Positions 2,371 to 47,457 of a DNA stretch of 56,389 nucleotides are shown here, one piece after another. Both the position numbers and the translations under genes were made by a program. The stretch comes from Clostridiales bacterium (GTDB taxonomy: Bacteria > Bacillota > Clostridia > Lachnospirales > Lachnospiraceae): the NCBI GenBank assembly GCA_029012085.1, contig JAQXLK010000156.1:1-56389 (forward strand), given 5' to 3'. The notes below the pieces were generated by a model that was not told the DNA's origin, did not search any database, and saw only the letters and a list, made by a program, of their open reading frames with translations. Within the stretch, counting starts at the first letter, position 1, and every line of letters begins with the position of its first letter.

Positions 2371-2536
2371 TTTATTTCCTCCTAAACTTCCCTATATCAT
2401 CTTTACCTTTATTCTTCCAGAAAGTCATTACGCAAAAATCCCACGTATTCTGTTAGTATAGCAGAAATATATTTGCATTTCAACCTTTTCATAGTATATA
2501 CTATATTCAAAAACCATTCATTACAGAGGAGGCACT

Positions 2537-3265
2537 ATGAATAAAACCGCTATCATTACAGGCGCTTCCAGCGGTATTGGCAGAGCCTGCGCTATTGAAT
2601 TAGCCAAATATTTTGATTATATTGTCATCAATTCTTTTCACAATAAAACAGAATTAGATAACACCTGCACCGCAGTACAACAGCTGGGTGCCACATGCCT
2701 TACATTTACTGGTGACATTGGTGATTTTGATTTCGTACATCAAATGATGACGGATGTATTGGCCCAATGTCCCCCTGTTGAACTACTCATAAATAACGCA
2801 GGAATCTCTTACGTTGGCTTACTATCCGATATGACCATCGAAGATTGGAACAACATTGTCCGTACCAATCTGACATCCGTATTCAACTGCTGCAACCAAA
2901 TTGTTCCTCATATGGTAAATAACAAATCCGGACATATCATTAACATTTCCTCCATGTGGGGATTAAGCGGCGCATCCTGTGAAGTTGCTTATAGTGCCAC
3001 AAAAGGTGGTGTAAATGCATTCACACAGGGATTAGCAAAAGAACTGGCACCCAGTGGAATACGTGTCAATGCCATTGCCTGTGGTGCAATCAATACCAGG
3101 ATGAACGCCTGCTTTGACCCAGCCGAACTGGCATCTTTATGTGAAGACATTCCTGCCTGCCGTCTCGGCACACCGGAAGAGATTGCTCAGGCGGTCGTTC
3201 ATCTATATCAAAGTCCATTTTATCTCACAGGCGAAATCATAAAAATAGACGGTGGCTATCTGTAA
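2537..3265 (+). CDS. SDR-family oxidoreductase (FabG-like)
   Basis: TGASSGIG cofactor motif, NNAG, catalytic YSATKGG (YxxxK); GGAGG RBS upstream. Confidence 0.9.
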   Translation: MNKTAIITGASSGIGRACAIELAKYFDYIVINSFHNKTELDNTCTAVQQLGATCLTFTGDIGDFDFVHQMMTDVLAQCPPVELLINNAGISYVGLLSDMTIEDWNNIVRTNLTSVFNCCNQIVPHMVNNKSGHIINISSMWGLSGASCEVAYSATKGGVNAFTQGLAKELAPSGIRVNAIACGAINTRMNACFDPAELASLCEDIPACRLGTPEEIAQAVVHLYQSPFYLTGEIIKIDGGYL

Positions 3266-3279
3266 AACCACCGTCTTTT
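3246..3279. terminator. Bidirectional intrinsic terminator between convergent genes
   Basis: Stem agacggtgg (3246-3254) pairs with ccaccgtct (3267-3275). It is flanked by an A-run upstream and a T-run downstream, and sits between the + SDR gene and the - NlpC/P60 gene. Confidence 0.6.
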
Positions 3280-3307
3280 TAATTTCTATATTTGTTTTTA
3301 TAGTTCA

Positions 3308-4063
3308 TTACTTAGATATAGCATATCTTGTAGTAGCATCATTCTGACCATCTTCCGGAACGGAATAAGTCTCTGTCTTAAGAACACGACCAGCACCAAG
3401 TGTTTTTCTATATTTGTAATCAGAAATCGTAATACCTGTTATTTCATTTGAAGCATGCACAACCTTCTCATTACCTATATACAGTGCTACGTGAGAACAA
3501 TTTCTCTTACTGCTGCCATAAAATATCAAATCACCCGGCTTTAACTTCTTCATCGAAACTTTCTTTACTGATTTTGAAGTCATCTGGCTTTGTGAATTAT
3601 GTGGCAGATTATATCCAAACTTCTTATATACTGACATTGTAAATCCTGAACAATCTGTTCCCTTTGTAAGACTAGAACCACCATATACGTACTTGTTACC
3701 AACATACTGTAACGCATAACCAACAACAGCCTTTTGTTCATCGGACATTTCAGAATAATCCGCAACTGATACCTTACATATGTATTTCTTACCATTCACT
3801 TTTGCAGTAACCTTCGCCATACCAACGCCTGTCGAAGTAACACCACCATTTTGGTCGACTTCCACAACATCCTCATTGGATGAAGACCACTTCACATTGC
3901 CTGTTGTATTCAAAACCTGAAGCTGTTCCACTTCGTCTAATCCTAAAACAAGCTTTGACTGATTAAGCTTAACTGCTCCCGCAGCGTCCACTTTTGTTGA
4001 AATCCCTGTTGCTAAACATATTACAAATAAGAATGTGAATAGTAATAAATTTCTATGCTTCAT
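3308..4063 (-). CDS. Secreted NlpC/P60 (C40) cell-wall peptidase with N-terminal Big_2-like Ig domain
   Basis: Signal peptide MKHRNLLLFTFLFVICLATG and a Big_2-like segment (LQVLNTTGNVKWSSSNEDVVEVD). The C40 core is GTDCSGFTMSVYKKFGYNLPHNSQSQ...GDLIFY...SHVALYIGNEKVVHA. Confidence 0.9.
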   Translation of the reverse strand: MKHRNLLLFTFLFVICLATGISTKVDAAGAVKLNQSKLVLGLDEVEQLQVLNTTGNVKWSSSNEDVVEVDQNGGVTSTGVGMAKVTAKVNGKKYICKVSVADYSEMSDEQKAVVGYALQYVGNKYVYGGSSLTKGTDCSGFTMSVYKKFGYNLPHNSQSQMTSKSVKKVSMKKLKPGDLIFYGSSKRNCSHVALYIGNEKVVHASNEITGITISDYKYRKTLGAGRVLKTETYSVPEDGQNDATTRYAISK

Positions 4064-4229
4064 AATAATACTTAATTCCTTCCAAGATTTTATTCCTTTT
4101 CAACATTCTCTATTTTAACATATTTTTTACGGATTTCAAGACTTTTTTGCACATTTTGTAACAATTCTGTAACAAACTTTCATTTTTTTACTCTTTTTTC
4201 TTTAGAAATTGTTAAGAAACCTACACATA

Positions 4230-4709
4230 TTATTCCGGATATACCAGTCGTTCTTCTGTAATACCGGTAAGCACCTCATCATAATATTTCTTTGCAACAT
4301 ACTTTGCCATTCCAAGGTTCATATCCAGATAATTACCACAATCACGAGCTGCTGCTCCCGGCACTTCTCCCTCAAAGTCCTTCATAAAAGCATACATCTC
4401 TGTTACCAACGGCACAACATCCTTTGATGTATAATCGCCTGCTAAGACCATGTAAAAACCTGTACGGCAGCCCATCGGTCCAAAATAAATTACTTTATCT
4501 TTATACTCTGCATGATTACGCAAAAAGGTTGCACCCAAATGCTCCAATGTATGAACCTCCGCAGTATTCATAACCGGTTCAAAGTTAGGTCTTGTCATTC
4601 TCAAATCAAAGGTAGTAATCACCTCACTGCCTACAGTATCCTTACGAGATACATAAACTCCCGGTAACAATGTTAAATGATTTACTGTAAAACTTGCAAT
4701 TTTTTCCAT
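4230..4709 (-). CDS. luxS: S-ribosylhomocysteine lyase LuxS
   Basis: 159 aa; metal-binding HTLEHL motif and conserved GPMGCRTGFY; adjacent to the mtnN/pfs gene. Confidence 0.93.
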   Translation of the reverse strand: MEKIASFTVNHLTLLPGVYVSRKDTVGSEVITTFDLRMTRPNFEPVMNTAEVHTLEHLGATFLRNHAEYKDKVIYFGPMGCRTGFYMVLAGDYTSKDVVPLVTEMYAFMKDFEGEVPGAAARDCGNYLDMNLGMAKYVAKKYYDEVLTGITEERLVYPE

Positions 4710-4749
4710 TCGTCGTCTCCTATCAATATATTTCTTATTCTGTTGCCTT

Positions 4750-5442
4750 TCACAGCCGGCTGCACAATTCTAAAAGTAATTTTACGGAATGTTCAATCGC
4801 CTTTGCTTCAAAAGTCGGATAATCCACACTTGCAGAATCATCTGCCTTATCCGAAATGGCACGGATGATAAGAAATGGCACATTATTCAGATATGCTGCA
4901 TGTGCAATTGCTGCCCCTTCCATTTCTGTACAATAGCCTGCAAAATTCTCCACCAGCCACTTTTTTTTCGCTTTGTCTGAAATAAACTGGTCACCACTTA
5001 CGACTCTTCCCTCAAACACCTTTACCTCCGGATTCACCTTTTCGCATGCTGCCTTAGCAACAGCACGAAGTTTAGCATCCGCCTCAAAAGATAACGTATC
5101 CATGCGTGGAATCTGCCCTACCGGATATCCAAAAGCCACTGCATCCATATCATGCTCTAATGTATCCGTCGAAAGTACGATATCTCCAATATCAATAGAA
5201 GCATTTAATGAACCTGCAATACCTGTGTTGATAATGGCATCTACATGGTATTCATCTATCAGAATCTGCGCACACATAGCTGCATTTACCTTACCAATTC
5301 CGGAACGCACTACAACAACAGGTTGTCCACTTAAAGTTCCCTTAAAAAATTCCATGGCAGCCTTTGTCATAACGTCAACGTTTTGCATCTGCTCCTTGAC
5401 CTTTGCCACCTCTTCATCCATTGCACCAATAATTCCTAACAT
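4750..5442 (-). CDS. mtnN: 5'-methylthioadenosine/S-adenosylhomocysteine nucleosidase
   Basis: 230 aa; MLGIIGAMDEEV start, TGIAGS and TEMEGAAIA motifs typical of Pfs/MtnN. Confidence 0.93.
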   Translation of the reverse strand: MLGIIGAMDEEVAKVKEQMQNVDVMTKAAMEFFKGTLSGQPVVVVRSGIGKVNAAMCAQILIDEYHVDAIINTGIAGSLNASIDIGDIVLSTDTLEHDMDAVAFGYPVGQIPRMDTLSFEADAKLRAVAKAACEKVNPEVKVFEGRVVSGDQFISDKAKKKWLVENFAGYCTEMEGAAIAHAAYLNNVPFLIIRAISDKADDSASVDYPTFEAKAIEHSVKLLLELCSRL

Positions 5443-7685: not shown

Positions 7686-8444
7686 TTATTTTTTAGAAAT
7701 GTTCTTCGAATTCTTTTTCGTTTCCTCAAGCAATTCAAATATATCCGTAAGTTCTTCTACAGACATCTTTGTATAATCCGCCAGCTGTTCTATTGTAGGG
7801 TCTTTTCCCATTTCCTCATTCAGAAGCTTCTTTGCAGCATGAACAAGGCTTACTTTTGCAAGCATTGCCTCCTCTGCTTCCATTTCACCATTTATTTCAG
7901 ATGCATATTTCATAATTCCCTCTTCCACAGCACTTCGTAAAACAGCCTCCACATCCTCACATTTTCCACTACCGCATAGCTGCTGCAAGGATATAAATAG
8001 TGCCATATTTCCTTCCTGCACTAAATCTTCTATATTAAGTTTCGGTGTCAAGTACCCCTTAGCCGATTCTAAAACCTTTGAAAGCCAGCAGCCGGAAAGT
8101 TTACCAATTGCGCTTTCATCACCCTGTAACAGGGCATTATACATCTCGATTTCTTCCGTTCGTGTATATTTAGGAAGTCCCTCTAACTCCTCAAGGTACA
8201 TCTTAAAAACCTGTGACTGCTGTTCATTAAGCTCTGGCTCTGCATCCTCCTGTTCCCCTTCACCTTCTGCTTCCTCTTCATGTGGTGTCAGCAAATATTC
8301 CAACACAATGTTTTCCTGCTCTTTTGAAAGTTCCATATCCTTAAAAAAGGACAAAATATCTTCTTTGGACATGGGTGTCTCTGCCACCTTCATAATTTCA
8401 GACACGCTTTTTACTGTTTCCATAAATGTATTCTGATCTACCAT
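7686..8444 (-). CDS. Sigma-70 (SigA)-like protein with region 1.1/1.2/2.1-2.2/3.0-like segments but no region 2.4 aromatic motif and no region 4
   Basis: 252 aa. VFKMYLEELEGLPKYTRTEEIEMYNALLQGDESA resembles region 1.2. LSKVLESAKGYL...IEDLVQEGNMALFISLQQL resembles regions 2.1-2.2. DPTIEQLADYTKMSVEELTDIFELLEE resembles region 3.0. The ORF ends there. Confidence 0.6.
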   Translation of the reverse strand: MVDQNTFMETVKSVSEIMKVAETPMSKEDILSFFKDMELSKEQENIVLEYLLTPHEEEAEGEGEQEDAEPELNEQQSQVFKMYLEELEGLPKYTRTEEIEMYNALLQGDESAIGKLSGCWLSKVLESAKGYLTPKLNIEDLVQEGNMALFISLQQLCGSGKCEDVEAVLRSAVEEGIMKYASEINGEMEAEEAMLAKVSLVHAAKKLLNEEMGKDPTIEQLADYTKMSVEELTDIFELLEETKKNSKNISKK

Positions 8445-41489: not shown

Positions 41490-42290
41490 CTATAAAGACA
41501 AATCCCTCTTGGTAAACCAGATTCCTCCCGCTGCCGAAAGCACAACACTAATCAAAAGCAAGATCACACAAGGAAGCACCGCCTCACTGTTTCCTGCAAT
41601 AAGCTTATCCGCCGGAAGCAGGGAATAAATCGTGGTGTACTTTAAAAACTCCAAATCCTCTCCCATGTTTCCCAACATGTTAAGGAAGAAAAACAAAATT
41701 GGAATGCCGGCACCAAAGAAGTAATAATACTTGGCATCACTGAAAATGCAAGCTGCAAGGAAGGTAATACCTGCCACTGCAAACCAAAGCATAAGGGTTC
41801 CGGCATTTAAACAAAGATATTTTTCAACATCCAGCTCATCCGGAAACATGGCATTTGCTGACACAAGCCCCACAGCAGTTACACATGCCATCAAGATAAA
41901 AAGCCACATATATAGGGACAATAGCTGTGTTACTATAATCTTCCCTCTGGAATTTGGTGTTGCCAAAATTCCCGCCAGCGAACCGTTATCAATAAATCCC
42001 ATAACAAGCTTATTTACAGCAATAATAATGAAAATCAATGGAAAAAGCAGCATAATAAAACCATACAAATACACCTTTATCCACTCTAACAAAGAGGACG
42101 CCATCCCTTCCATTCCCATTGCTGCCATCATTTCCGGCATCATTTCCCGGTATGCGTCAAACATTTTCGCAATCTCCGGATCATACATGTAGATGATAAC
42201 CGAGGTGTACATCACCAAAAACAGTAAAATGATAATAAATGGTACCAAACAAGCTTTCAAATTATGTTTCAACATTGGAATACTAAGCAT
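41490..42290 (-). CDS. ABC-2-type transporter permease
   Basis: The start is moved to the ATG at 42290 (MLSIPMLKHNLKA...), overlapping the ATPase stop by 8 nt. There are six hydrophobic segments. Confidence 0.75.
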   Translation of the reverse strand: MLSIPMLKHNLKACLVPFIIILLFLVMYTSVIIYMYDPEIAKMFDAYREMMPEMMAAMGMEGMASSLLEWIKVYLYGFIMLLFPLIFIIIAVNKLVMGFIDNGSLAGILATPNSRGKIIVTQLLSLYMWLFILMACVTAVGLVSANAMFPDELDVEKYLCLNAGTLMLWFAVAGITFLAACIFSDAKYYYFFGAGIPILFFFLNMLGNMGEDLEFLKYTTIYSLLPADKLIAGNSEAVLPCVILLLISVVLSAAGGIWFTKRDLSL

Positions 42291-43182
42291 GCTTCTCCTC
42301 CTCCTTTCCATAATAATGCAAAAATACATCTTCTAAACTCTGAGTAGCAATCTGCAAATCCACCGGCTCATATTCTGCCAGAACTTTCAAACTGCCCGCA
42401 ACATTACTATTTACTAAAAGCTTCACAACAGCACCATTTCTTGACTGTACAGTAATCTCCGGCTGCTGAGATAACCGGACTGCCTGTTCCTCATTTTGAA
42501 GCGTCACTGTATACACCTGATTGCGTATTTTAGAAAGTGCCGCCATATCCACTGTATCCACAATTTTCCCCTGACGAATAATGGCTGTACGGTCACAGGT
42601 ACGTTCCACCTCCTCAAAAATGTGAGAGGACATCAAAATCGTTGTCCCTTTTTTCTTTTCCTCTAAAATCAAATCCACAAACCGGTTCTGCATCAGTGGG
42701 TCCAATCCACTGGTAGGCTCATCTAAAATGATGACTCTCGGCGAATCCATAAACGCTGTCACCAGCGCAATCTTCTGCTTCATTCCTTTTGACATTTTCC
42801 GGATTTTCCCCGTTGGATTTAGCTCAAACATATCAATCAGCTCTTTCATCCGGGTATCATCCTTCATTCCTCTTAGCTGTGCAATGAACTGGATATACTC
42901 CATTCCCTTCATGTTCTCCACAAAAGCAATCTCTCCTGCCAGATAACCAATCTGCTTATGAATCTCTGCCGCCTGCCGGAAACAGTCCATTCCCAGCATC
43001 TGAAGAGAACCCTTTTGTGGTTTCACAAATCCCAACAACTGACGTATGGTGGTACTCTTTCCTGCCCCATTTGGACCAAGATACCCAAACACTTCTCCTT
43101 CTTTCACAGAAAAACTGATGTCAAACACACCTTTTCCCTGACCAAAATCCTTTGTTACGTTTTGAATCTCAATCGGCTGCAT
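42283..43182 (-). CDS. ABC transporter ATP-binding protein
   Basis: Walker A GPNGAGKSTT, signature MSKGMKQKIALV, Walker B VIILDEPTSGLDP, H-loop SSH. Confidence 0.92.
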   Translation of the reverse strand: MQPIEIQNVTKDFGQGKGVFDISFSVKEGEVFGYLGPNGAGKSTTIRQLLGFVKPQKGSLQMLGMDCFRQAAEIHKQIGYLAGEIAFVENMKGMEYIQFIAQLRGMKDDTRMKELIDMFELNPTGKIRKMSKGMKQKIALVTAFMDSPRVIILDEPTSGLDPLMQNRFVDLILEEKKKGTTILMSSHIFEEVERTCDRTAIIRQGKIVDTVDMAALSKIRNQVYTVTLQNEEQAVRLSQQPEITVQSRNGAVVKLLVNSNVAGSLKVLAEYEPVDLQIATQSLEDVFLHYYGKEEEKHA

Positions 43183-43690
43183 AATCCTTCTCCCCTTCCT
43201 TAAACTGCTCTAACATGTCATTCAGATTCCTGGTATCAATATCTCGTTTGATCTTGTTAATCAGATACACACACCAATAGGCAAAGATAAAAAATGCCAG
43301 AAATAACACCGTTACCAGTAACTTTCTATCAAACCAGCCAAACAGATAAGACACACCTGTATAAATGCTGCTGCAAAGCAGGGTTTTCAAAAACTCTAAT
43401 ACACCAAAGCTCTCTGCCTCGTCAAAATTATTAAGACAATAAATTTGCAGATATCCCATCAGATATGCGGTTGCAATCATTTCACACATATAAAGCACAC
43501 TCGCCTGAAACACACCCTTATATGCAAGATAGATACAATAAAAAACGAGAATACTGTAAAAATACAGACATGCCTTATATTCAATGGCAATCTCCTTACT
43601 CAGATAGGAATTCCAGTTTTTCTTGTAATTTTCAATAAAGCTGCTTTTCTTTTTATTCGCATTTACAGAACTTTTCACTTTCCTACTCAT
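43169..43690 (-). CDS. DUF3021-like membrane protein (LytTR partner)
   Basis: 173 aa with four hydrophobic helices. It overlaps both neighbouring genes. Confidence 0.65.
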   Translation of the reverse strand: MSRKVKSSVNANKKKSSFIENYKKNWNSYLSKEIAIEYKACLYFYSILVFYCIYLAYKGVFQASVLYMCEMIATAYLMGYLQIYCLNNFDEAESFGVLEFLKTLLCSSIYTGVSYLFGWFDRKLLVTVLFLAFFIFAYWCVYLINKIKRDIDTRNLNDMLEQFKEGEKDYAAD

Positions 43691-44132
43691 CTTCTCTGCC
43701 TCCCTTCAATATCTGTCGTAAAATCCTTGCATATCGTCTGGAAATCATAACCTGCTCATCATTTTCCATGGTGGCACAAATCCGGTTTCCCGGTTCACTT
43801 TTCAGATAGGATATTTTGTAAATATTGATTACCATAGACTTGGAACAACGAAACATCCCCCTATCCTCGTAACGGATTGCCAGCCGTTCCAGACTGTCAT
43901 TTACCTTACACACCATATCCTTTAGATAAGCATAGGTTGTACCATCCACACTTTCAAAATAATAGATTTGCTCCGGAAGCAGAAAAAGCTGTCTGCCATC
44001 TTCATACCCTTCGATTCGTTTCCCGGATGACTGTACAATAGAAGCAATCGCTTCCACCTCGTCATTCATCTGCCGGTAGCGGATGATTACCTCATCCTCG
44101 CCCTCTGTAATTTGTTTCATGGTAAGCTTCAT
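43683..44132 (-). CDS. LytTR-family DNA-binding protein (no receiver domain)
   Basis: The LytTR core is IYYFESVDGTTYAYLKDMVCKVNDSLERLAIRYEDRGMFRCSKSMVINIYKISYL. Confidence 0.8.
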   Translation of the reverse strand: MKLTMKQITEGEDEVIIRYRQMNDEVEAIASIVQSSGKRIEGYEDGRQLFLLPEQIYYFESVDGTTYAYLKDMVCKVNDSLERLAIRYEDRGMFRCSKSMVINIYKISYLKSEPGNRICATMENDEQVMISRRYARILRQILKGGREDE

Positions 44133-44167: not shown

Positions 44168-44295
44168 ACGTATAAGCGCTCACCTCGTAACCTCCGGTTA
44201 CTCGGTGTTCGTTGCACTCACATAACTTTCGATGAAACCGCTTGCCTGCAAGCAGCCATCGGTTTCATTCGAAAGTTGCGTTCGCGCTTATACGT
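44168..44295 (-). other. 128-nt nested-hairpin element: candidate structured 5' leader RNA of the LytTR operon
   Basis: The outer 12-bp stem is acgtataagcgc (44168-44179) with gcgcttatacgt (44284-44295). Two inner hairpins sit inside it. One is a 12-bp stem whose 2x2 internal loop is tandem G-A only in the minus-strand RNA. The other is a 17-bp stem with one bulged nucleotide, capped by a small gcttg-cctg-caagc hairpin. Confidence 0.4.
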
Positions 44296-44297
44296 TC

Positions 44298-44325
44298 ATT
44301 ATACAAAAAATAACGGTCCCCGCAA
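44298..44325 (-). promoter_or_regulatory. Candidate sigma-A promoter for the LytTR operon
   Basis: On the minus strand: TTGCGG (44325-44320), a 16-nt spacer, then TATAAT (44303-44298). This would place the transcription start at the edge of the nested hairpin. Confidence 0.3.
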
Positions 44326-44339
44326 TAGAGGAACCGTTA
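44304..44339 (-). terminator. Intrinsic terminator after the HipA-like gene (inside 61-nt repeat copy A, 44306-44366)
   Basis: In the minus-strand RNA, uaacgguuc pairs with ggaccguua (9 bp including one G-U that would be a C-A mismatch on the + strand), followed by UUUUUUG. Confidence 0.8.
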
Positions 44340-44371
44340 TGTTGCAGTTTTTATGCTTTAAGATGCAGTAT

Positions 44372-45187
44372 TTATTCTTTTACGAACAAATATTGATACT
44401 TTTCCATCTGCGCATAAATAATATTCTCTACTCTCGTTCTTATCTCTGCCGAATAAATATCCGCAGCATCCAGCAAATTTCTTACATCCTTTTTCGTAAA
44501 ATAAAATTTAAGATTTCCCTTATACAAGGCTTCTGAAATGTCAAGCTGCTCATCAAAATCGTCACAGATTGTTTTAGCCTTGACACTACTCATATGCTCA
44601 TAAATATCTCCTTCAAGCGGATAATCCATTGTAGTATCTGACAAAACACCCGCACCATTATCAAATATTGGACAAACCATAAATTCTCCATTTTCATTCA
44701 TCAGTACTGCAATATTATGCGTATGTCTGTCTTCATTAAAAAAGAAGGCGTCCACCGTAAAAAGCTTGTTCATGTATATGCCAAAGTCTTTCAGACCTGT
44801 AATCCGTTCTGCCTGATTCACCAAAAACAACAATCTCTCTCTATAATCCTTAATTTTATATATAGATGCATACAAACTCTCATCAAAAAAATTTTGAAAT
44901 AAGCGCTCTAACGTGATAATCTGCCAACCTTTCTTTAAAAAATTGCAGCTTTTCACACCGTTGTATATTATTTTCTTATATCTAATTTGCTCTAAATCAT
45001 AAAGAACATATTCTTCTTCCAATAGTGTTGATTTTGTAAGAAGGTGAGAGATTACATATTCAGCCAGGCCCTCATAACCTGTATAGTCTGCCTTATACCA
45101 AATACCGTTTGTTTCCCACTTCAATTGATTTCCTTTAGAGGACTGTCGGTCATTTGTTTTCACATCCTGTTCAAATAGTGTAATCAT
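44372..45187 (-). CDS. HipA-family serine/threonine kinase toxin, short (HipT-like, lacks the HipA N-terminal subdomain)
   Basis: 271 aa. The Gly-rich loop-like segment is DRQSSKGNQLKW. The catalytic motif NEDRHTHNIAVL matches D-x-H-x-x-N. The Mg-binding-like segment is CPIFDNGAG. Confidence 0.75.
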   Translation of the reverse strand: MITLFEQDVKTNDRQSSKGNQLKWETNGIWYKADYTGYEGLAEYVISHLLTKSTLLEEEYVLYDLEQIRYKKIIYNGVKSCNFLKKGWQIITLERLFQNFFDESLYASIYKIKDYRERLLFLVNQAERITGLKDFGIYMNKLFTVDAFFFNEDRHTHNIAVLMNENGEFMVCPIFDNGAGVLSDTTMDYPLEGDIYEHMSSVKAKTICDDFDEQLDISEALYKGNLKFYFTKKDVRNLLDAADIYSAEIRTRVENIIYAQMEKYQYLFVKE

Positions 45188-45191
45188 TGCA

Positions 45192-45740
45192 TCACCTCTC
45201 TATTCGAATCCAAAAATCATCCTCTGCCATTCTCCCTTCTGTCTTTTCGATAATCATAAAAGGGTCATAAAACGGCAAATCCAAATCCTTCAATATAAGT
45301 TTCATCTTGTCTCTGCTTTTGGGAAAACATCTCGACTCTAAAAAATCTGTGTACATTTTATAATCCGGATGCTCCTCTTTGCCAAATGCACGAAACATTA
45401 CATTATCTGTGTAATTTTTTATAATAACCTGCTGATTTACCTCATCTACGTCAATCACGGTACACACTGTTTGATTATGCATATACCATAACCTGAGAGG
45501 ATAGTTTTTTTCCGGTACCTTGAGCTTATTCACAAATTCAGGTTCTCTTTCCAACAATTTTAACAATAGTACAATTGGTCCCACAATGGGTTCACTACTC
45601 GTCTCCCATCTCTCCACAGTTGACTTAGAACAGTTAACCAGCAGGGCAAACTCCTTCTGCGTAAGTCCCAATTGCTTTCTAATATTCTTTATTTCATTTG
45701 CTGTTATATATTCTGGTGTCACAAAGAGTTTTTTTAGCAA
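45192..45740 (-). CDS. XRE-type HTH fused to a HipA-N-terminal (HipS-like) domain; putative antitoxin
   Basis: TTG start 5 nt after GGAGGTG. The HTH is IKNIRKQLGLTQKEFALLVNCSKSTVERWE. The C-terminal half (LWYMHNQTVCTVIDVD...FLESRCFPKSRDKMKLILKDLDL...MIIEKTEGRMAEDDFWIRI) follows the pattern of the HipA N-terminal domain. Confidence 0.75.
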   Translation of the reverse strand: MLKKLFVTPEYITANEIKNIRKQLGLTQKEFALLVNCSKSTVERWETSSEPIVGPIVLLLKLLEREPEFVNKLKVPEKNYPLRLWYMHNQTVCTVIDVDEVNQQVIIKNYTDNVMFRAFGKEEHPDYKMYTDFLESRCFPKSRDKMKLILKDLDLPFYDPFMIIEKTEGRMAEDDFWIRIER

Positions 45741-45757
45741 AAAAACACCTCCATTAC

Positions 45758-45813
45758 AAAACCTTTATTTTAATGGTTTTTCTTTTTGCAAAAACCTTTA
45801 TTTTGATGGTTTT
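45758..45813 (-). promoter_or_regulatory. Two copies of an AAAACC-N11-GGTTTT inverted repeat (candidate operators of the HTH antitoxin)
   Basis: Copy 1 is at 45758-45780 and copy 2 at 45791-45813. The surrounding 24 nt are nearly identical, and the centres are 33 nt apart. They lie between the candidate -10 box and the RBS. Confidence 0.45.
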
Positions 45814-45816
45814 TTT

Positions 45817-45845
45817 ATTATACCTCAAAAACAAGAAAATATCAC
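45817..45845 (-). promoter_or_regulatory. Candidate sigma-A promoter of the toxin-antitoxin operon
   Basis: On the minus strand: GTGATA (45845-45840), a 17-nt spacer, then TATAAT (45822-45817). Confidence 0.35.
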
Positions 45846-45907: not shown

Positions 45908-45943
45908 AGAAAAATAACGGCTCACGCAATAGCGGAACCGTTA
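45908..45943 (-). terminator. Intrinsic terminator after the 46004..46663 gene (inside 61-nt repeat copy B, 45910-45970)
   Basis: In the minus-strand RNA, uaacgguuc pairs with gagccguua (9 bp, one G-U), followed by UUUUUC. Confidence 0.8.
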
Positions 45944-46003
45944 AGTTGCAGTTTTCACCCTATAAGATGCTTTTTTTATTAAATAACTGTAAATCAGCAG
46001 GAA

Positions 46004-46663
46004 TCAGAGATTTTTATCCAGCCTCACACGAAAGAACTGAATCAGCGGCCCGTTAAACAGACAATTTAAAACAGTCCCCAAACCCACCACTGTCCAAATA
46101 GAGTTTCCGGCAATCAGAGAAAATATCACTCCAACAACCATCACTGTTACATCCGAACCGATTCGTCCTGCTTTAAAGGATACTTTATCTTTCGTCAGCT
46201 TCATAACGATAAATGCCACACTGTCGTAAGGAGCAATTCCCATATCTGCCGCCATATACATGGCAGCTCCCACTGTAAGAAGCAGCATAGCAACTGCAAG
46301 CAGACAGAACCTTAATGGCAATACCACAGATATAGAAAGCTGCTCCTGTACAATCCAGCACACAAAATCTGCAATATATCCTACAAATACCATATTAATT
46401 ACCGTTCCCATACCAATGCAATGACGCACGGTAAAGAAAACAACAATCAATACAGCAATATTCATAATGAGCTGCCAGTTACCAAAGCTCATTCCCAAAT
46501 ACTTACTGATTGCCAGATTCATGCAAGTAAATGGATCCACTCCAAAACCTGCTATACGATATGCTCCCACAGCAATTCCGATAAGGAAAATGCCGAACAG
46601 CATATAAAATACTCTCTTTCCTTGTATCTTCATCTTTTTCTTTGTATTTTCATCTTTTACCAC
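46004..46663 (-). CDS. YczE/YitT-like multi-pass membrane protein
   Basis: 219 aa with about six hydrophobic helices and a pattern (GIAVGAYRIAGFGVDPF) like the YczE/YyaS family. The start is uncertain: GTG at 46663 or ATG at 46633. Confidence 0.6.
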   Translation of the reverse strand: MVKDENTKKKMKIQGKRVFYMLFGIFLIGIAVGAYRIAGFGVDPFTCMNLAISKYLGMSFGNWQLIMNIAVLIVVFFTVRHCIGMGTVINMVFVGYIADFVCWIVQEQLSISVVLPLRFCLLAVAMLLLTVGAAMYMAADMGIAPYDSVAFIVMKLTKDKVSFKAGRIGSDVTVMVVGVIFSLIAGNSIWTVVGLGTVLNCLFNGPLIQFFRVRLDKNL

Positions 46664-47457
46664 GTACGGGAATTCAACTCTCTAAACTGGGCAACGGTTG
46701 AAACATGAGAATTCAGACCGCCGTCCACATTAACAATCTGTCCGCTCACATAAGCACTCTCATCGGATGCAAGATATACACACATATGTCCGATATCCTC
46801 TGGGCAACCGTAGCGGTTCACCATAATATTGCTAAGGAAGACATCCTTAAGTGCCTGAGGAACATGTGCCTCGTTCTGCGGTGTAACAATCAATCCCGGA
46901 CGCACACAGTTACAACGAATATTCTGCTTACCATACTGCAAAGCGGTAGACTGGGTCAGCATATCCACACCGGCCTTTGCACAGGCATAAGCTGTAGAAC
47001 CAAGGTCTCCTCCACAGGAAGCCATAGAACCAATATTGATGATAGAGCCGCCTTCATTCTTCTGCATATATGGAAGAACACACTTGGTAGCATAAAATTT
47101 TCCACGCATATCACTCTGGAATACAGCATCCCACATTTCCAGAGTCAATTCATCCACACGACCATCTTTCAAACCTACATTAGCAGCATTATTTACAAGA
47201 ATATCAATCTTTCCATATTTCTCAGCAGTATCCGCAAAAAGCTTATCCACACTTTCCATAACTGTCATATCCATAAAATGATACCAGGCTTCTCCGCCGT
47301 CTTTTGCAATGCTGTCCACAACAGCCTGCCCCTTCTCCTCACGACGTCCACAGATGACTACCTTTGCGCCCTCAGCAGCAAACAATCTGGCAATACCAAC
47401 ACCAATTCCACTGGTAGAACCCGTAACAATCGCAACTTTGTCTTTCAATCTGTCCAT
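46657..47457 (-). CDS. SDR-family oxidoreductase
   Basis: TGSTSGIG, NNAA, YACAKAG (YxxxK), 266 aa. Confidence 0.9.
   Translation of the reverse strand: MDRLKDKVAIVTGSTSGIGVGIARLFAAEGAKVVICGRREEKGQAVVDSIAKDGGEAWYHFMDMTVMESVDKLFADTAEKYGKIDILVNNAANVGLKDGRVDELTLEMWDAVFQSDMRGKFYATKCVLPYMQKNEGGSIINIGSMASCGGDLGSTAYACAKAGVDMLTQSTALQYGKQNIRCNCVRPGLIVTPQNEAHVPQALKDVFLSNIMVNRYGCPEDIGHMCVYLASDESAYVSGQIVNVDGGLNSHVSTVAQFRELNSRTW

Follow-up and report, generated by a model that had tools for sequence, protein, structure and literature searches.

A pair of minus-strand genes at positions 44372–45740 of contig JAQXLK010000156.1, from a Clostridiales bacterium of the family Lachnospiraceae (assembly GCA_029012085.1), probably forms an autoregulated, bipartite toxin-antitoxin or defense module that resembles the HipBST system in a compacted layout. 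The window referred to throughout is the whole stretch of DNA that was analyzed, 56,389 nucleotides in length. The first gene of the pair encodes a protein of 182 amino acids in which an XRE-type helix-turn-helix (HTH) domain is joined to a second domain, here called domain X, that is probably HipS-like. The second encodes a putative toxin of 271 amino acids, a kinase of the HipA/CtkA superfamily that consists of the core only.

The HTH-X gene spans 45192–45740, begins with a TTG codon, and has a ribosome-binding site (RBS), GGAGGTG, at 45746–45752, 5 nt before the start. The kinase gene spans 44372–45187 (minus strand for both genes, with the stop codon counted in the coordinates). As read from the window sequence, the gap between the TGA of HTH-X and the ATG of the kinase is 4 nt, and the kinase RBS, AGAGGTG, is located within the last codons of the HTH-X gene, which suggests that translation of the two is coupled. 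The two-gene module proposed in an earlier, first-pass annotation of this DNA is therefore borne out as two tightly coupled open reading frames (ORFs) of 182 and 271 amino acids on the minus strand. The genes are small, adjacent, and co-directional, as in type II toxin-antitoxin modules, and their junction is conserved.

The pairing is itself a conserved feature. Relatives of the kinase are encoded in at least 583 GTDB species genomes, mostly of Lachnospiraceae (tblastn, E ≤ 1e-3). Among the best 80 of these loci, drawn from the sampled species genomes and with kinases that are 61–75% identical, an HTH-X gene of 182 amino acids lies immediately upstream of the kinase with the same tight 4-nt junction in 79. 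HTH-X homologues are uniformly 182 amino acids long, in a family of more than 2,100 database clusters. At 90% identity the kinase family exceeds 3,000 clusters, every one of which lacks a name or is called ‘hypothetical protein’ and comes from metagenome-assembled genomes (MAGs) of Lachnospiraceae and Ruminococcus; at 50% identity it has 1,895 representatives (E ≤ 0.001). The pair is also present in Lachnospira eligens ATCC 27750, on a 627-kb replicon (megaplasmid, NC_012780.1; positions 2447–3810 of our locus L112). There it corresponds to EUBELI_RS13140 and EUBELI_RS13135, annotated as ‘HTH domain-containing’ and ‘hypothetical’ respectively, and the kinase is 62% identical to that of the window.

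The second gene carries the motifs expected of a HipA-type kinase, and the three that had been claimed for it were verified codon by codon. Conservation was assessed over 78 diverse representatives that are 29–63% identical to the window kinase. The Gly-rich (P-) loop, SSKGNQLK, occupies residues 16–23 (45119–45142, minus strand), with G19, Q21, and K23 conserved to 90% or more. The catalytic loop, NEDRHTHN, occupies residues 151–158 (44714–44737, minus strand), where D153, R154, H155, and N158 reach the same level, and it aligns with NFDRHNGN of CtkA, NEDMHLKN of HipT from Legionella (HipT(Lp)), and TDGHAKN of HipA. The Mg-binding motif, PIFDNG, at residues 173–178 (44654–44671, minus strand), aligns with PIFDCG of CtkA and PFYD of HipA; here G178 does not vary, and conservation of P173 and D176 is 90% or higher. 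Ser 16 and Ser 17 of the P-loop fall at the position of the autophosphorylation serines of HipA (Ser 150) and HipT (Ser 57). The predicted kinase is most likely catalytically competent.

Structure prediction and family-level profiles place this protein in a known superfamily. The AlphaFold2 (AF2) model of the kinase has a pLDDT of 82.6 and a pTM of 0.84, and its best Foldseek match in the PDB is CtkA (E 9e-8, template-modeling (TM) score 0.63), followed by HipA (E 1.2e-4) and HipT (E 1.3e-4), all three with a probability of 1.00. The pLDDT is low for residues 1–20, a stretch that includes part of the Gly-rich loop, and this fits a loop that is mobile as in HipA and HipT. A profile built from the 78 representatives matches Helicobacter pylori CtkA with an E-value of 1.9e-8 over residues 44–259 and Legionella HipT(Lp) with an E-value of 0.007. 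The Pfam family HipA_C is matched individually by 65 of the 78 (E < 0.1; best 3.4e-6), and a relative from a Bacillaceae plasmid, which aligns over 81% of the query at 39% identity (E 7e-25), attains the HipA_C gathering score with 30.6 bits. The PADLOC model PDC-M03A is matched by the window kinase (E 1.4e-7) and by 76 of the 78 representatives (best E 1.5e-18). We conclude that the protein is a genuine member of the HipA/CtkA superfamily. It is also a core without N-subdomain-1, as had been noted from its length: the kinase core begins at residue 14–16, which leaves no space for the N-subdomain-1 of HipA, roughly 110 residues long. The earlier label ‘HipT-like’ holds as far as a HipA-superfamily core is concerned but is imprecise as to HipT, given that CtkA (1.9e-8) and PDC-M03A are closer than HipT (0.007); by profile and by fold alike, the kinase is nearer to CtkA. 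Five relatives (P0268, P0315, P0337, P0384, and P0415) have an extra C-terminal extension of about 80–120 residues with a recurring ‘...IPF(I/V/A)...’ segment, for which Pfam gave no match.

The N-terminal part of the first protein is readily assigned. Its HTH lies at residues 14–73 (45522–45701, minus strand) and belongs to the MqsA/HigA2 antitoxin subtype of the XRE type, as indicated by matches to Pfam HTH_3 (E 2.8e-8) and MqsA_antitoxin (E 8e-8), to NCBIfam TIGR03830 (E 7.6e-15), and to HigA2 in the PDB (E 3e-6). Foldseek searches with the model of the whole protein likewise return HigA2 and MqsA, with a TMt of about 0.8, and against BFVD the same model returned HTH matches only. That the upstream protein begins with an XRE HTH, as first proposed, is thus supported by the HTH_3 and TIGR03830 profiles.

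Domain X occupies residues 82–182 (45195–45497, minus strand), and the protein ends with ...FLESRCFPKSRDKMKLILKDLDLPFYDPFMIIEKTEGRMAEDDFWIRIER, as quoted in the first-pass annotation. On the evidence of the AF2 model, Foldseek, and standalone homologues, X is a probable HipS-like, kinase-binding domain. In the AF2 model of HTH-X (pLDDT 80.5) it has the order β-β-β-(short bridge)-α-α-α-β. The first Foldseek match of this model outside the HTH is chain B of PDB entry 7VKB, which is Legionella HipS according to the paper on that structure (HipS(Lp); probability 0.97, TMt 0.57, E 0.064). The alignment covers 107 columns with 9% identity and a root-mean-square deviation (rmsd) of 4.4 Å, the query being the whole two-domain model. 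X and HipS are each about 100 residues long, appear to share the order of strands and helices (the HipS/N-subdomain-1 fold being a small α/β unit with five strands and three helices), and occupy the same place beside a HipA-type kinase that lacks the N-subdomain.

Layout variants among the relatives mark X as a unit in its own right. In six distant loci, standalone X genes encoding 101–116 amino acids lie upstream of the kinase gene and abut or overlap it, and these homologues begin exactly at the position equivalent to residue 83 of the window protein; standalone X without an HTH is the commonest layout in the sister clades. Elsewhere X forms the N-terminal part of a fusion with the kinase, a protein of 374 amino acids with the domain order of HipA (P0391 and P0367, for example at 1790–2914 of locus L082). 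This fusion is represented by two clusters with nine member sequences on short contigs, and a frameshift artifact is possible. In its closest relative, L083, the X and kinase genes are separate and overlap. The order is reversed on plasmid pBpOF4-02 of Alkalihalophilus pseudofirmus OF4 (L113, 2483–3670), where a kinase of 261 amino acids is followed by an X homologue of 129 (hhalign probability 97.8%, E 7e-13). That pair adjoins xerS, both of its genes are annotated ‘hypothetical protein’, and its kinase attains the HipA_C cut-off. Finally, 14 viral contigs from IMG/VR (L098–L111) join X to an HTH_7 domain of the resolvase type (Pfam E 5e-12), unrelated to the XRE HTH, giving an HTH_7-X protein of 200 amino acids followed by a kinase of 275 (for example, L102 5338–5940 and 5953–6780). 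In L102 a TnpB-like ORF (3968–5110, minus strand) adjoins the module. X is thus a portable module and a dedicated kinase partner that always accompanies the kinase; we call it portable because it has been joined independently to two types of DNA-binding domain and to the kinase itself.

The promoter region of the pair contains palindromes that point to control by its own product. A 19-bp palindrome (consensus AACCATTAAAATAATGGTT) is found upstream of the HTH-X gene in 59 of 73 loci, compared with 1 of 385 control windows, allowing up to 4 mismatches and taking random windows from the same loci as controls. Two copies spaced 31–33 nt apart, about three helical turns, occur in 28 of the 73 loci (at 32–33 nt in 27 of these 28) and in none of the 385 controls. 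Often a copy takes up the spacer that separates a −35 element, TTTACA, from a −10 element, TTTAAT. The window itself has a sigma-70-like promoter site at 45817–45845 on the minus strand (−35 GTGATA, 17-nt spacer, −10 TATAAT), matching 10 of 12 consensus positions and recognized by this consensus match only. The first candidate operator, AACCATCAAAATAAAGGTT, lies just downstream of the −10 element at 45793–45811, and the second, AACCATTAAAATAAAGGTT, at 45760–45778, is 33 nt from the first and also downstream of the −10 (both minus strand). Tandem palindromes of this kind are a signature of autorepression by an HTH protein, and we infer that the HTH protein of the pair binds them.

Taken as a HipBST-like module, the pair would work as follows. 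The first gene would supply a single polypeptide performing the tasks of both HipB and HipS, and the second a minimal Ser/Thr kinase of the HipA/CtkA superfamily, core only. A dimer of the XRE-type HTH would bind the two 19-bp palindromic operators at the module's own promoter and repress it, while X would dock on the kinase at the N-subdomain-1/HipS site and hold the Gly-rich loop in a state unable to bind ATP. Should the partner be lost, degraded, or titrated, for instance during phage infection or stress, the freed kinase would phosphorylate an essential target and arrest growth. By analogy with HipA and HipT, this target would most likely be a translation factor such as an aminoacyl-tRNA synthetase.

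Several results weigh against this reading, and they concern the kinase, domain X, the role of X as an antidote, and the genomic setting. As to the kinase, the window protein scores 13.6 bits against the HipA_C (PF07804) cut-off of 30.5, with an E-value of 0.054 over residues 142–180 only, and an NCBIfam scan returned no match for it. PDB sequence searches with the single kinase or a narrow alignment likewise found no kinase. The HipA_C match that might have been expected of it therefore fails for the window protein and succeeds for its family (65 of 78 relatives, with CtkA at 1.9e-8); because the protein itself falls below the cut-off, superfamily membership is reached only at the family level.

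For X, the sequence-profile tests are negative. X has no Pfam match, and among 23 family members none matched Couple_hipA (PF13657) at E ≤ 10, so that the profile hit anticipated in the first-pass annotation did not appear. Searches of the PDB with X profiles (hmmsearch) found no HipS or HipA chain and no significant chain of any kind, whereas the comparison query, residues 1–111 of Escherichia coli HipA, finds HipS(Lp) at 1.6e-7 and HipS of strain O127 at 1.3e-4. Comparisons of X by hhalign with HipA N-domains, taken as E. coli HipA(1–111) singly, as a set of 10 from plasmids, and as a set of 17 including those of Table S1, gave probabilities below 1%. In the absence of significant profile similarity, the link between X and HipS is drawn from one moderate Foldseek hit together with context.

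X could accordingly be unrelated to HipS, an independently evolved small α/β partner whose Foldseek match reflects convergence, in what would still be a kinase-partner system. The non-significant profile tests and the missing Couple_hipA match speak for this explanation, as do the E-value of 0.064, the 9% identity, and the rmsd of 4.4 Å of the structural match. Yet the size of X, its apparent order of strands and helices, and its position relative to a kinase without the N-subdomain are all those of HipS. In addition, the best hhalign register against the 17 N-domains, which pairs FLESRCFP with FFxxLLPD and GRMAEDD with GxDCxGA, is the register expected from structure, although at P = 0.078 it is insignificant. 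The HipA N-terminal pattern that had been read by eye in the C-terminal 110 residues thus corresponds to the best-scoring register but falls short of significance. A weak transitive link comes from PADLOC, where model PDLC04349 of PDC-M03B is matched both by X (E 0.002) and by residues 12–94 of E. coli HipA (E 0.0008), the two matches overlapping along the profile and agreeing in register. PDC-M03B models are matched by 6 of 14 X sequences, with E-values of 0.002–0.03 and over profile positions 47–114 of 232 only; apart from these, the X sequences matched a single Type I restriction-enzyme model only. Moreover, the HipS-like domains of Hip clade XI have already been found to branch apart from both HipS and the HipA N-domain (Gerdes et al., 2021; PMC8262856), and membership of such a branch would explain the poor sequence signal of X. 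We therefore hold an unrelated origin to be possible but doubtful, and consider X to be probably a HipS-like domain, for which homology is likely even though the sequence profiles are non-significant. The earlier proposal that HipB and HipS are fused in one polypeptide stands as the best reading insofar as an HTH-plus-partner protein precedes the kinase, and the HipS likeness within it draws on limited evidence, from structure and context.

Even as a HipS-like domain, X could be a structural or activating subunit instead of an antitoxin, since the HipA N-subdomain is part of the active toxin and a natural X-kinase fusion exists. X would then be the missing N-subdomain that completes and stabilizes the kinase, or activates it, as in full-length HipA, and control would come from the HTH, which would tether the holo-kinase to operator DNA or occlude it within a higher-order complex, as HipB does in HipBA, or from autophosphorylation of Ser 16 or Ser 17. 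N-subdomain-1 is an integral part of the active HipA toxin, and HipL kinases carry a HipS-like domain in cis (PMC8262856). The 374-residue fusion in two clusters fits this explanation, given that a purely inhibitory domain in cis would need extra regulation, and so does the position of Ser 16 and Ser 17 at the site of HipA Ser 150 and HipT Ser 57. However, the fusion is rare, found in 2 of 43 relatives in its subfamily. In the sister clades, where standalone X without an HTH is commonest, X is the sole candidate antidote. Separate HipS proteins are antitoxins in both split systems studied by experiment, the HipBST modules of E. coli O127 and L. pneumophila (PMC8262856; HipS(Lp) structure paper). 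On balance we regard a subunit role for X as unlikely and retain the reading of X as the antitoxin of a HipBST-like module.

The genomic setting bears on whether the pair is a toxin-antitoxin or defense module at all. Its neighbors in the window encode a LytTR regulator, an ABC-2 transporter, a YitT-like membrane protein, a short-chain dehydrogenase/reductase (SDR), and a methyl-accepting chemotaxis protein (MCP), and no mobile-element or defense genes were found in this neighborhood. The unusually good conservation of the pair (60–80% identity, at least 583 species) would also fit a housekeeping regulatory role. The two proteins would then be a conserved signaling pair, the kinase phosphorylating or partnering a cognate transcription factor to regulate other genes. 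Such a role would accord with the wide spread of the pair and with its ordinary chromosomal neighbors, and no toxin-antitoxin function is known for CtkA, the nearest relative with a solved structure. The operators, though, lie at the pair's own promoter and turn up in just 1 of 385 windows drawn at random from these loci, as is typical of autoregulation. The contexts are non-syntenic, with none of the window neighbors conserved beside the module elsewhere, and paralogous copies occur in one MAG (L057 and L068). Further relatives are carried by plasmids of Bacillaceae and Streptococcus and by phage contigs, the more distant kinase loci adjoin Fic, HEPN, helicase, and DUF2130 genes, and relatives match PADLOC PDC-M03A. 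A signaling pair of this sort is, in our view, quite improbable, and an autoregulated HipBST-like module is the better account of the locus.

The closest experimental counterpart is HipBST, described in E. coli O127:H6 and L. pneumophila (Lpg2368–2370). As in the window, its kinase is a HipA-type core without N-subdomain-1, a partner of about 100 residues is encoded directly upstream of it, the operon contains an XRE-type HTH, and the order is HTH, partner, kinase. HipBST is tricistronic, however, with separate HipB and HipS, whereas the pair described here has two genes and combines HTH and partner in one polypeptide of 182 amino acids. HipT has 312–342 amino acids, compared with 271 for the present kinase, which is closer to CtkA. 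Sequence comparison of the partner with HipS and Couple_hipA yields nothing significant, and the HTH belongs to the MqsA/HigA2 subtype. The hosts differ as well, being Gammaproteobacteria for HipBST and Firmicutes (Lachnospiraceae) here. HipT clade III is marked by a tricistronic operon, by HipT as the closest kinase, and by phosphorylation of TrpS; the window module has neither of the first two features.

Hip kinases of clade XI (hipJS, hipIN, and hipL) are 279–321 amino acids long with a Gly-rich loop near the N-terminus (Gerdes, Bærentsen and Brodersen, 2021; PMC8262856), and are therefore short core kinases like that of the window. Their HipS-like domains, like X, may be joined to a DNA-binding domain (HIRAN, in HipN) or to the kinase (in HipL). 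The kinase-then-partner order of hipJS is that of the plasmid relative on pBpOF4-02; the published clade XI partner genes lie downstream of the kinase, whereas the window partner lies upstream. The same survey counts 2 hipJS and 14 hipIN modules (PMC8262856), compared with at least 1,895 clusters in the present family.

CtkA (JHP0940 of the H. pylori tfs3-ICE; PDB 3AKJ, 3AKK, and 3AKL) is the closest solved structure and sequence, with DRHxxN and PIFDxG in common. It has 325 amino acids and is only about 15% identical to the window kinase. We know of no HTH-X partner for CtkA, which has been described as a secreted pro-inflammatory effector and not as a toxin of a toxin-antitoxin system. In PADLOC, the kinase matches component A and X weakly matches component B of PDC-M03, a phage-defense candidate only, for which the literature search gave a mention in one paper, and the B models have no HTH match. 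HipH/YjjJ is a monocistronic fusion of HTH and kinase, whereas here the HTH is fused to the partner and the kinase is separate. The ten published Hip gene organizations (PMC8262856) do not include an N-terminal HTH joined to a HipS-like domain ahead of the kinase, and a search of the literature turned up no account of an HTH-HipS fusion, later work included.

Flanking features of the module include terminators and repeats. An intrinsic terminator follows the kinase gene at 44310–44340 on the minus strand, with a 12-bp stem and a T-run (−20.7 kcal/mol, z = −3.1). The module is bracketed by two direct repeats of 71 nt, at 44306–44376 and 45910–45980, that are 83% identical and 1604 nt apart. Each folds as a minus-strand intrinsic terminator, one after the YitT-like gene and the other after the kinase gene. 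The repeats were considered as ends of a mobile element and rejected as a general feature of this kind; they are related intrinsic terminators, absent from the other loci except L001. In L001, the nearest genome, a similar element occurs at 4849–4883 and 8243–8285 with a different spacing. The arrangement looks like a terminator duplication resulting from cassette insertion. A scan of the locus against Rfam gave no match.

Directly downstream of the module, also on the minus strand, a cluster of four genes whose ORFs overlap or nearly abut spans 41490–44132. It encodes a LytTR DNA-binding protein of 149 amino acids, a membrane protein of 173 amino acids without a Pfam match, an ABC ATPase, and an ABC-2 permease, and a 14-bp inverted repeat lies at 44232–44268 upstream of the LytTR gene. 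On the other side, the window SDR (46657–47457) has a counterpart that is 92% identical at 2448–3248 of MAG locus L026, where it lies directly upstream of the module with no YitT-like gene between. The L026 module is only 70–77% identical to that of the window, and the two may be different cassette alleles in a similar chromosomal region.

A bolder account would treat the family as a very large, unnamed system of at least 1,895 clusters at 50% identity, spread over Firmicutes, plasmids, and phage contigs, in which a CtkA-like minimal kinase is paired with an independently invented, portable partner of about 100 residues that has been joined repeatedly to an XRE HTH, to HTH_7, or to the kinase. 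The Lachnospiraceae pair would then serve human gut commensals as a widespread switch for abortive infection or persistence, and both its target and its trigger would differ from those of HipA and HipT. We put this forward tentatively, as a speculation that may well prove wrong.

HipA-type kinases are the founding persistence toxins, and to our knowledge almost all of the diversity described for them is from Proteobacteria and Actinobacteria. Since its kinase superfamily, the principle of a split kinase, and autoregulation by HTH antitoxins are all established, the module does not amount to a new category. The family nevertheless escapes current annotation, its members being called ‘hypothetical protein’ or ‘HTH domain-containing protein’ and missed by Pfam and NCBIfam thresholds and by RefSeq naming. 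If the module works as proposed, it would add an eleventh gene organization to the Hip scheme. The series of fusions, from X alone to XRE HTH-X, resolvase HTH-X, and X-kinase, could help to resolve how the N-subdomain/HipS switches between being part of a toxin and being its antidote, and L. eligens ATCC 27750, a cultured type strain that carries the pair, would be a convenient experimental host. The pair offers a concrete candidate for growth-arrest or phage-defense switches in dominant human gut commensals.

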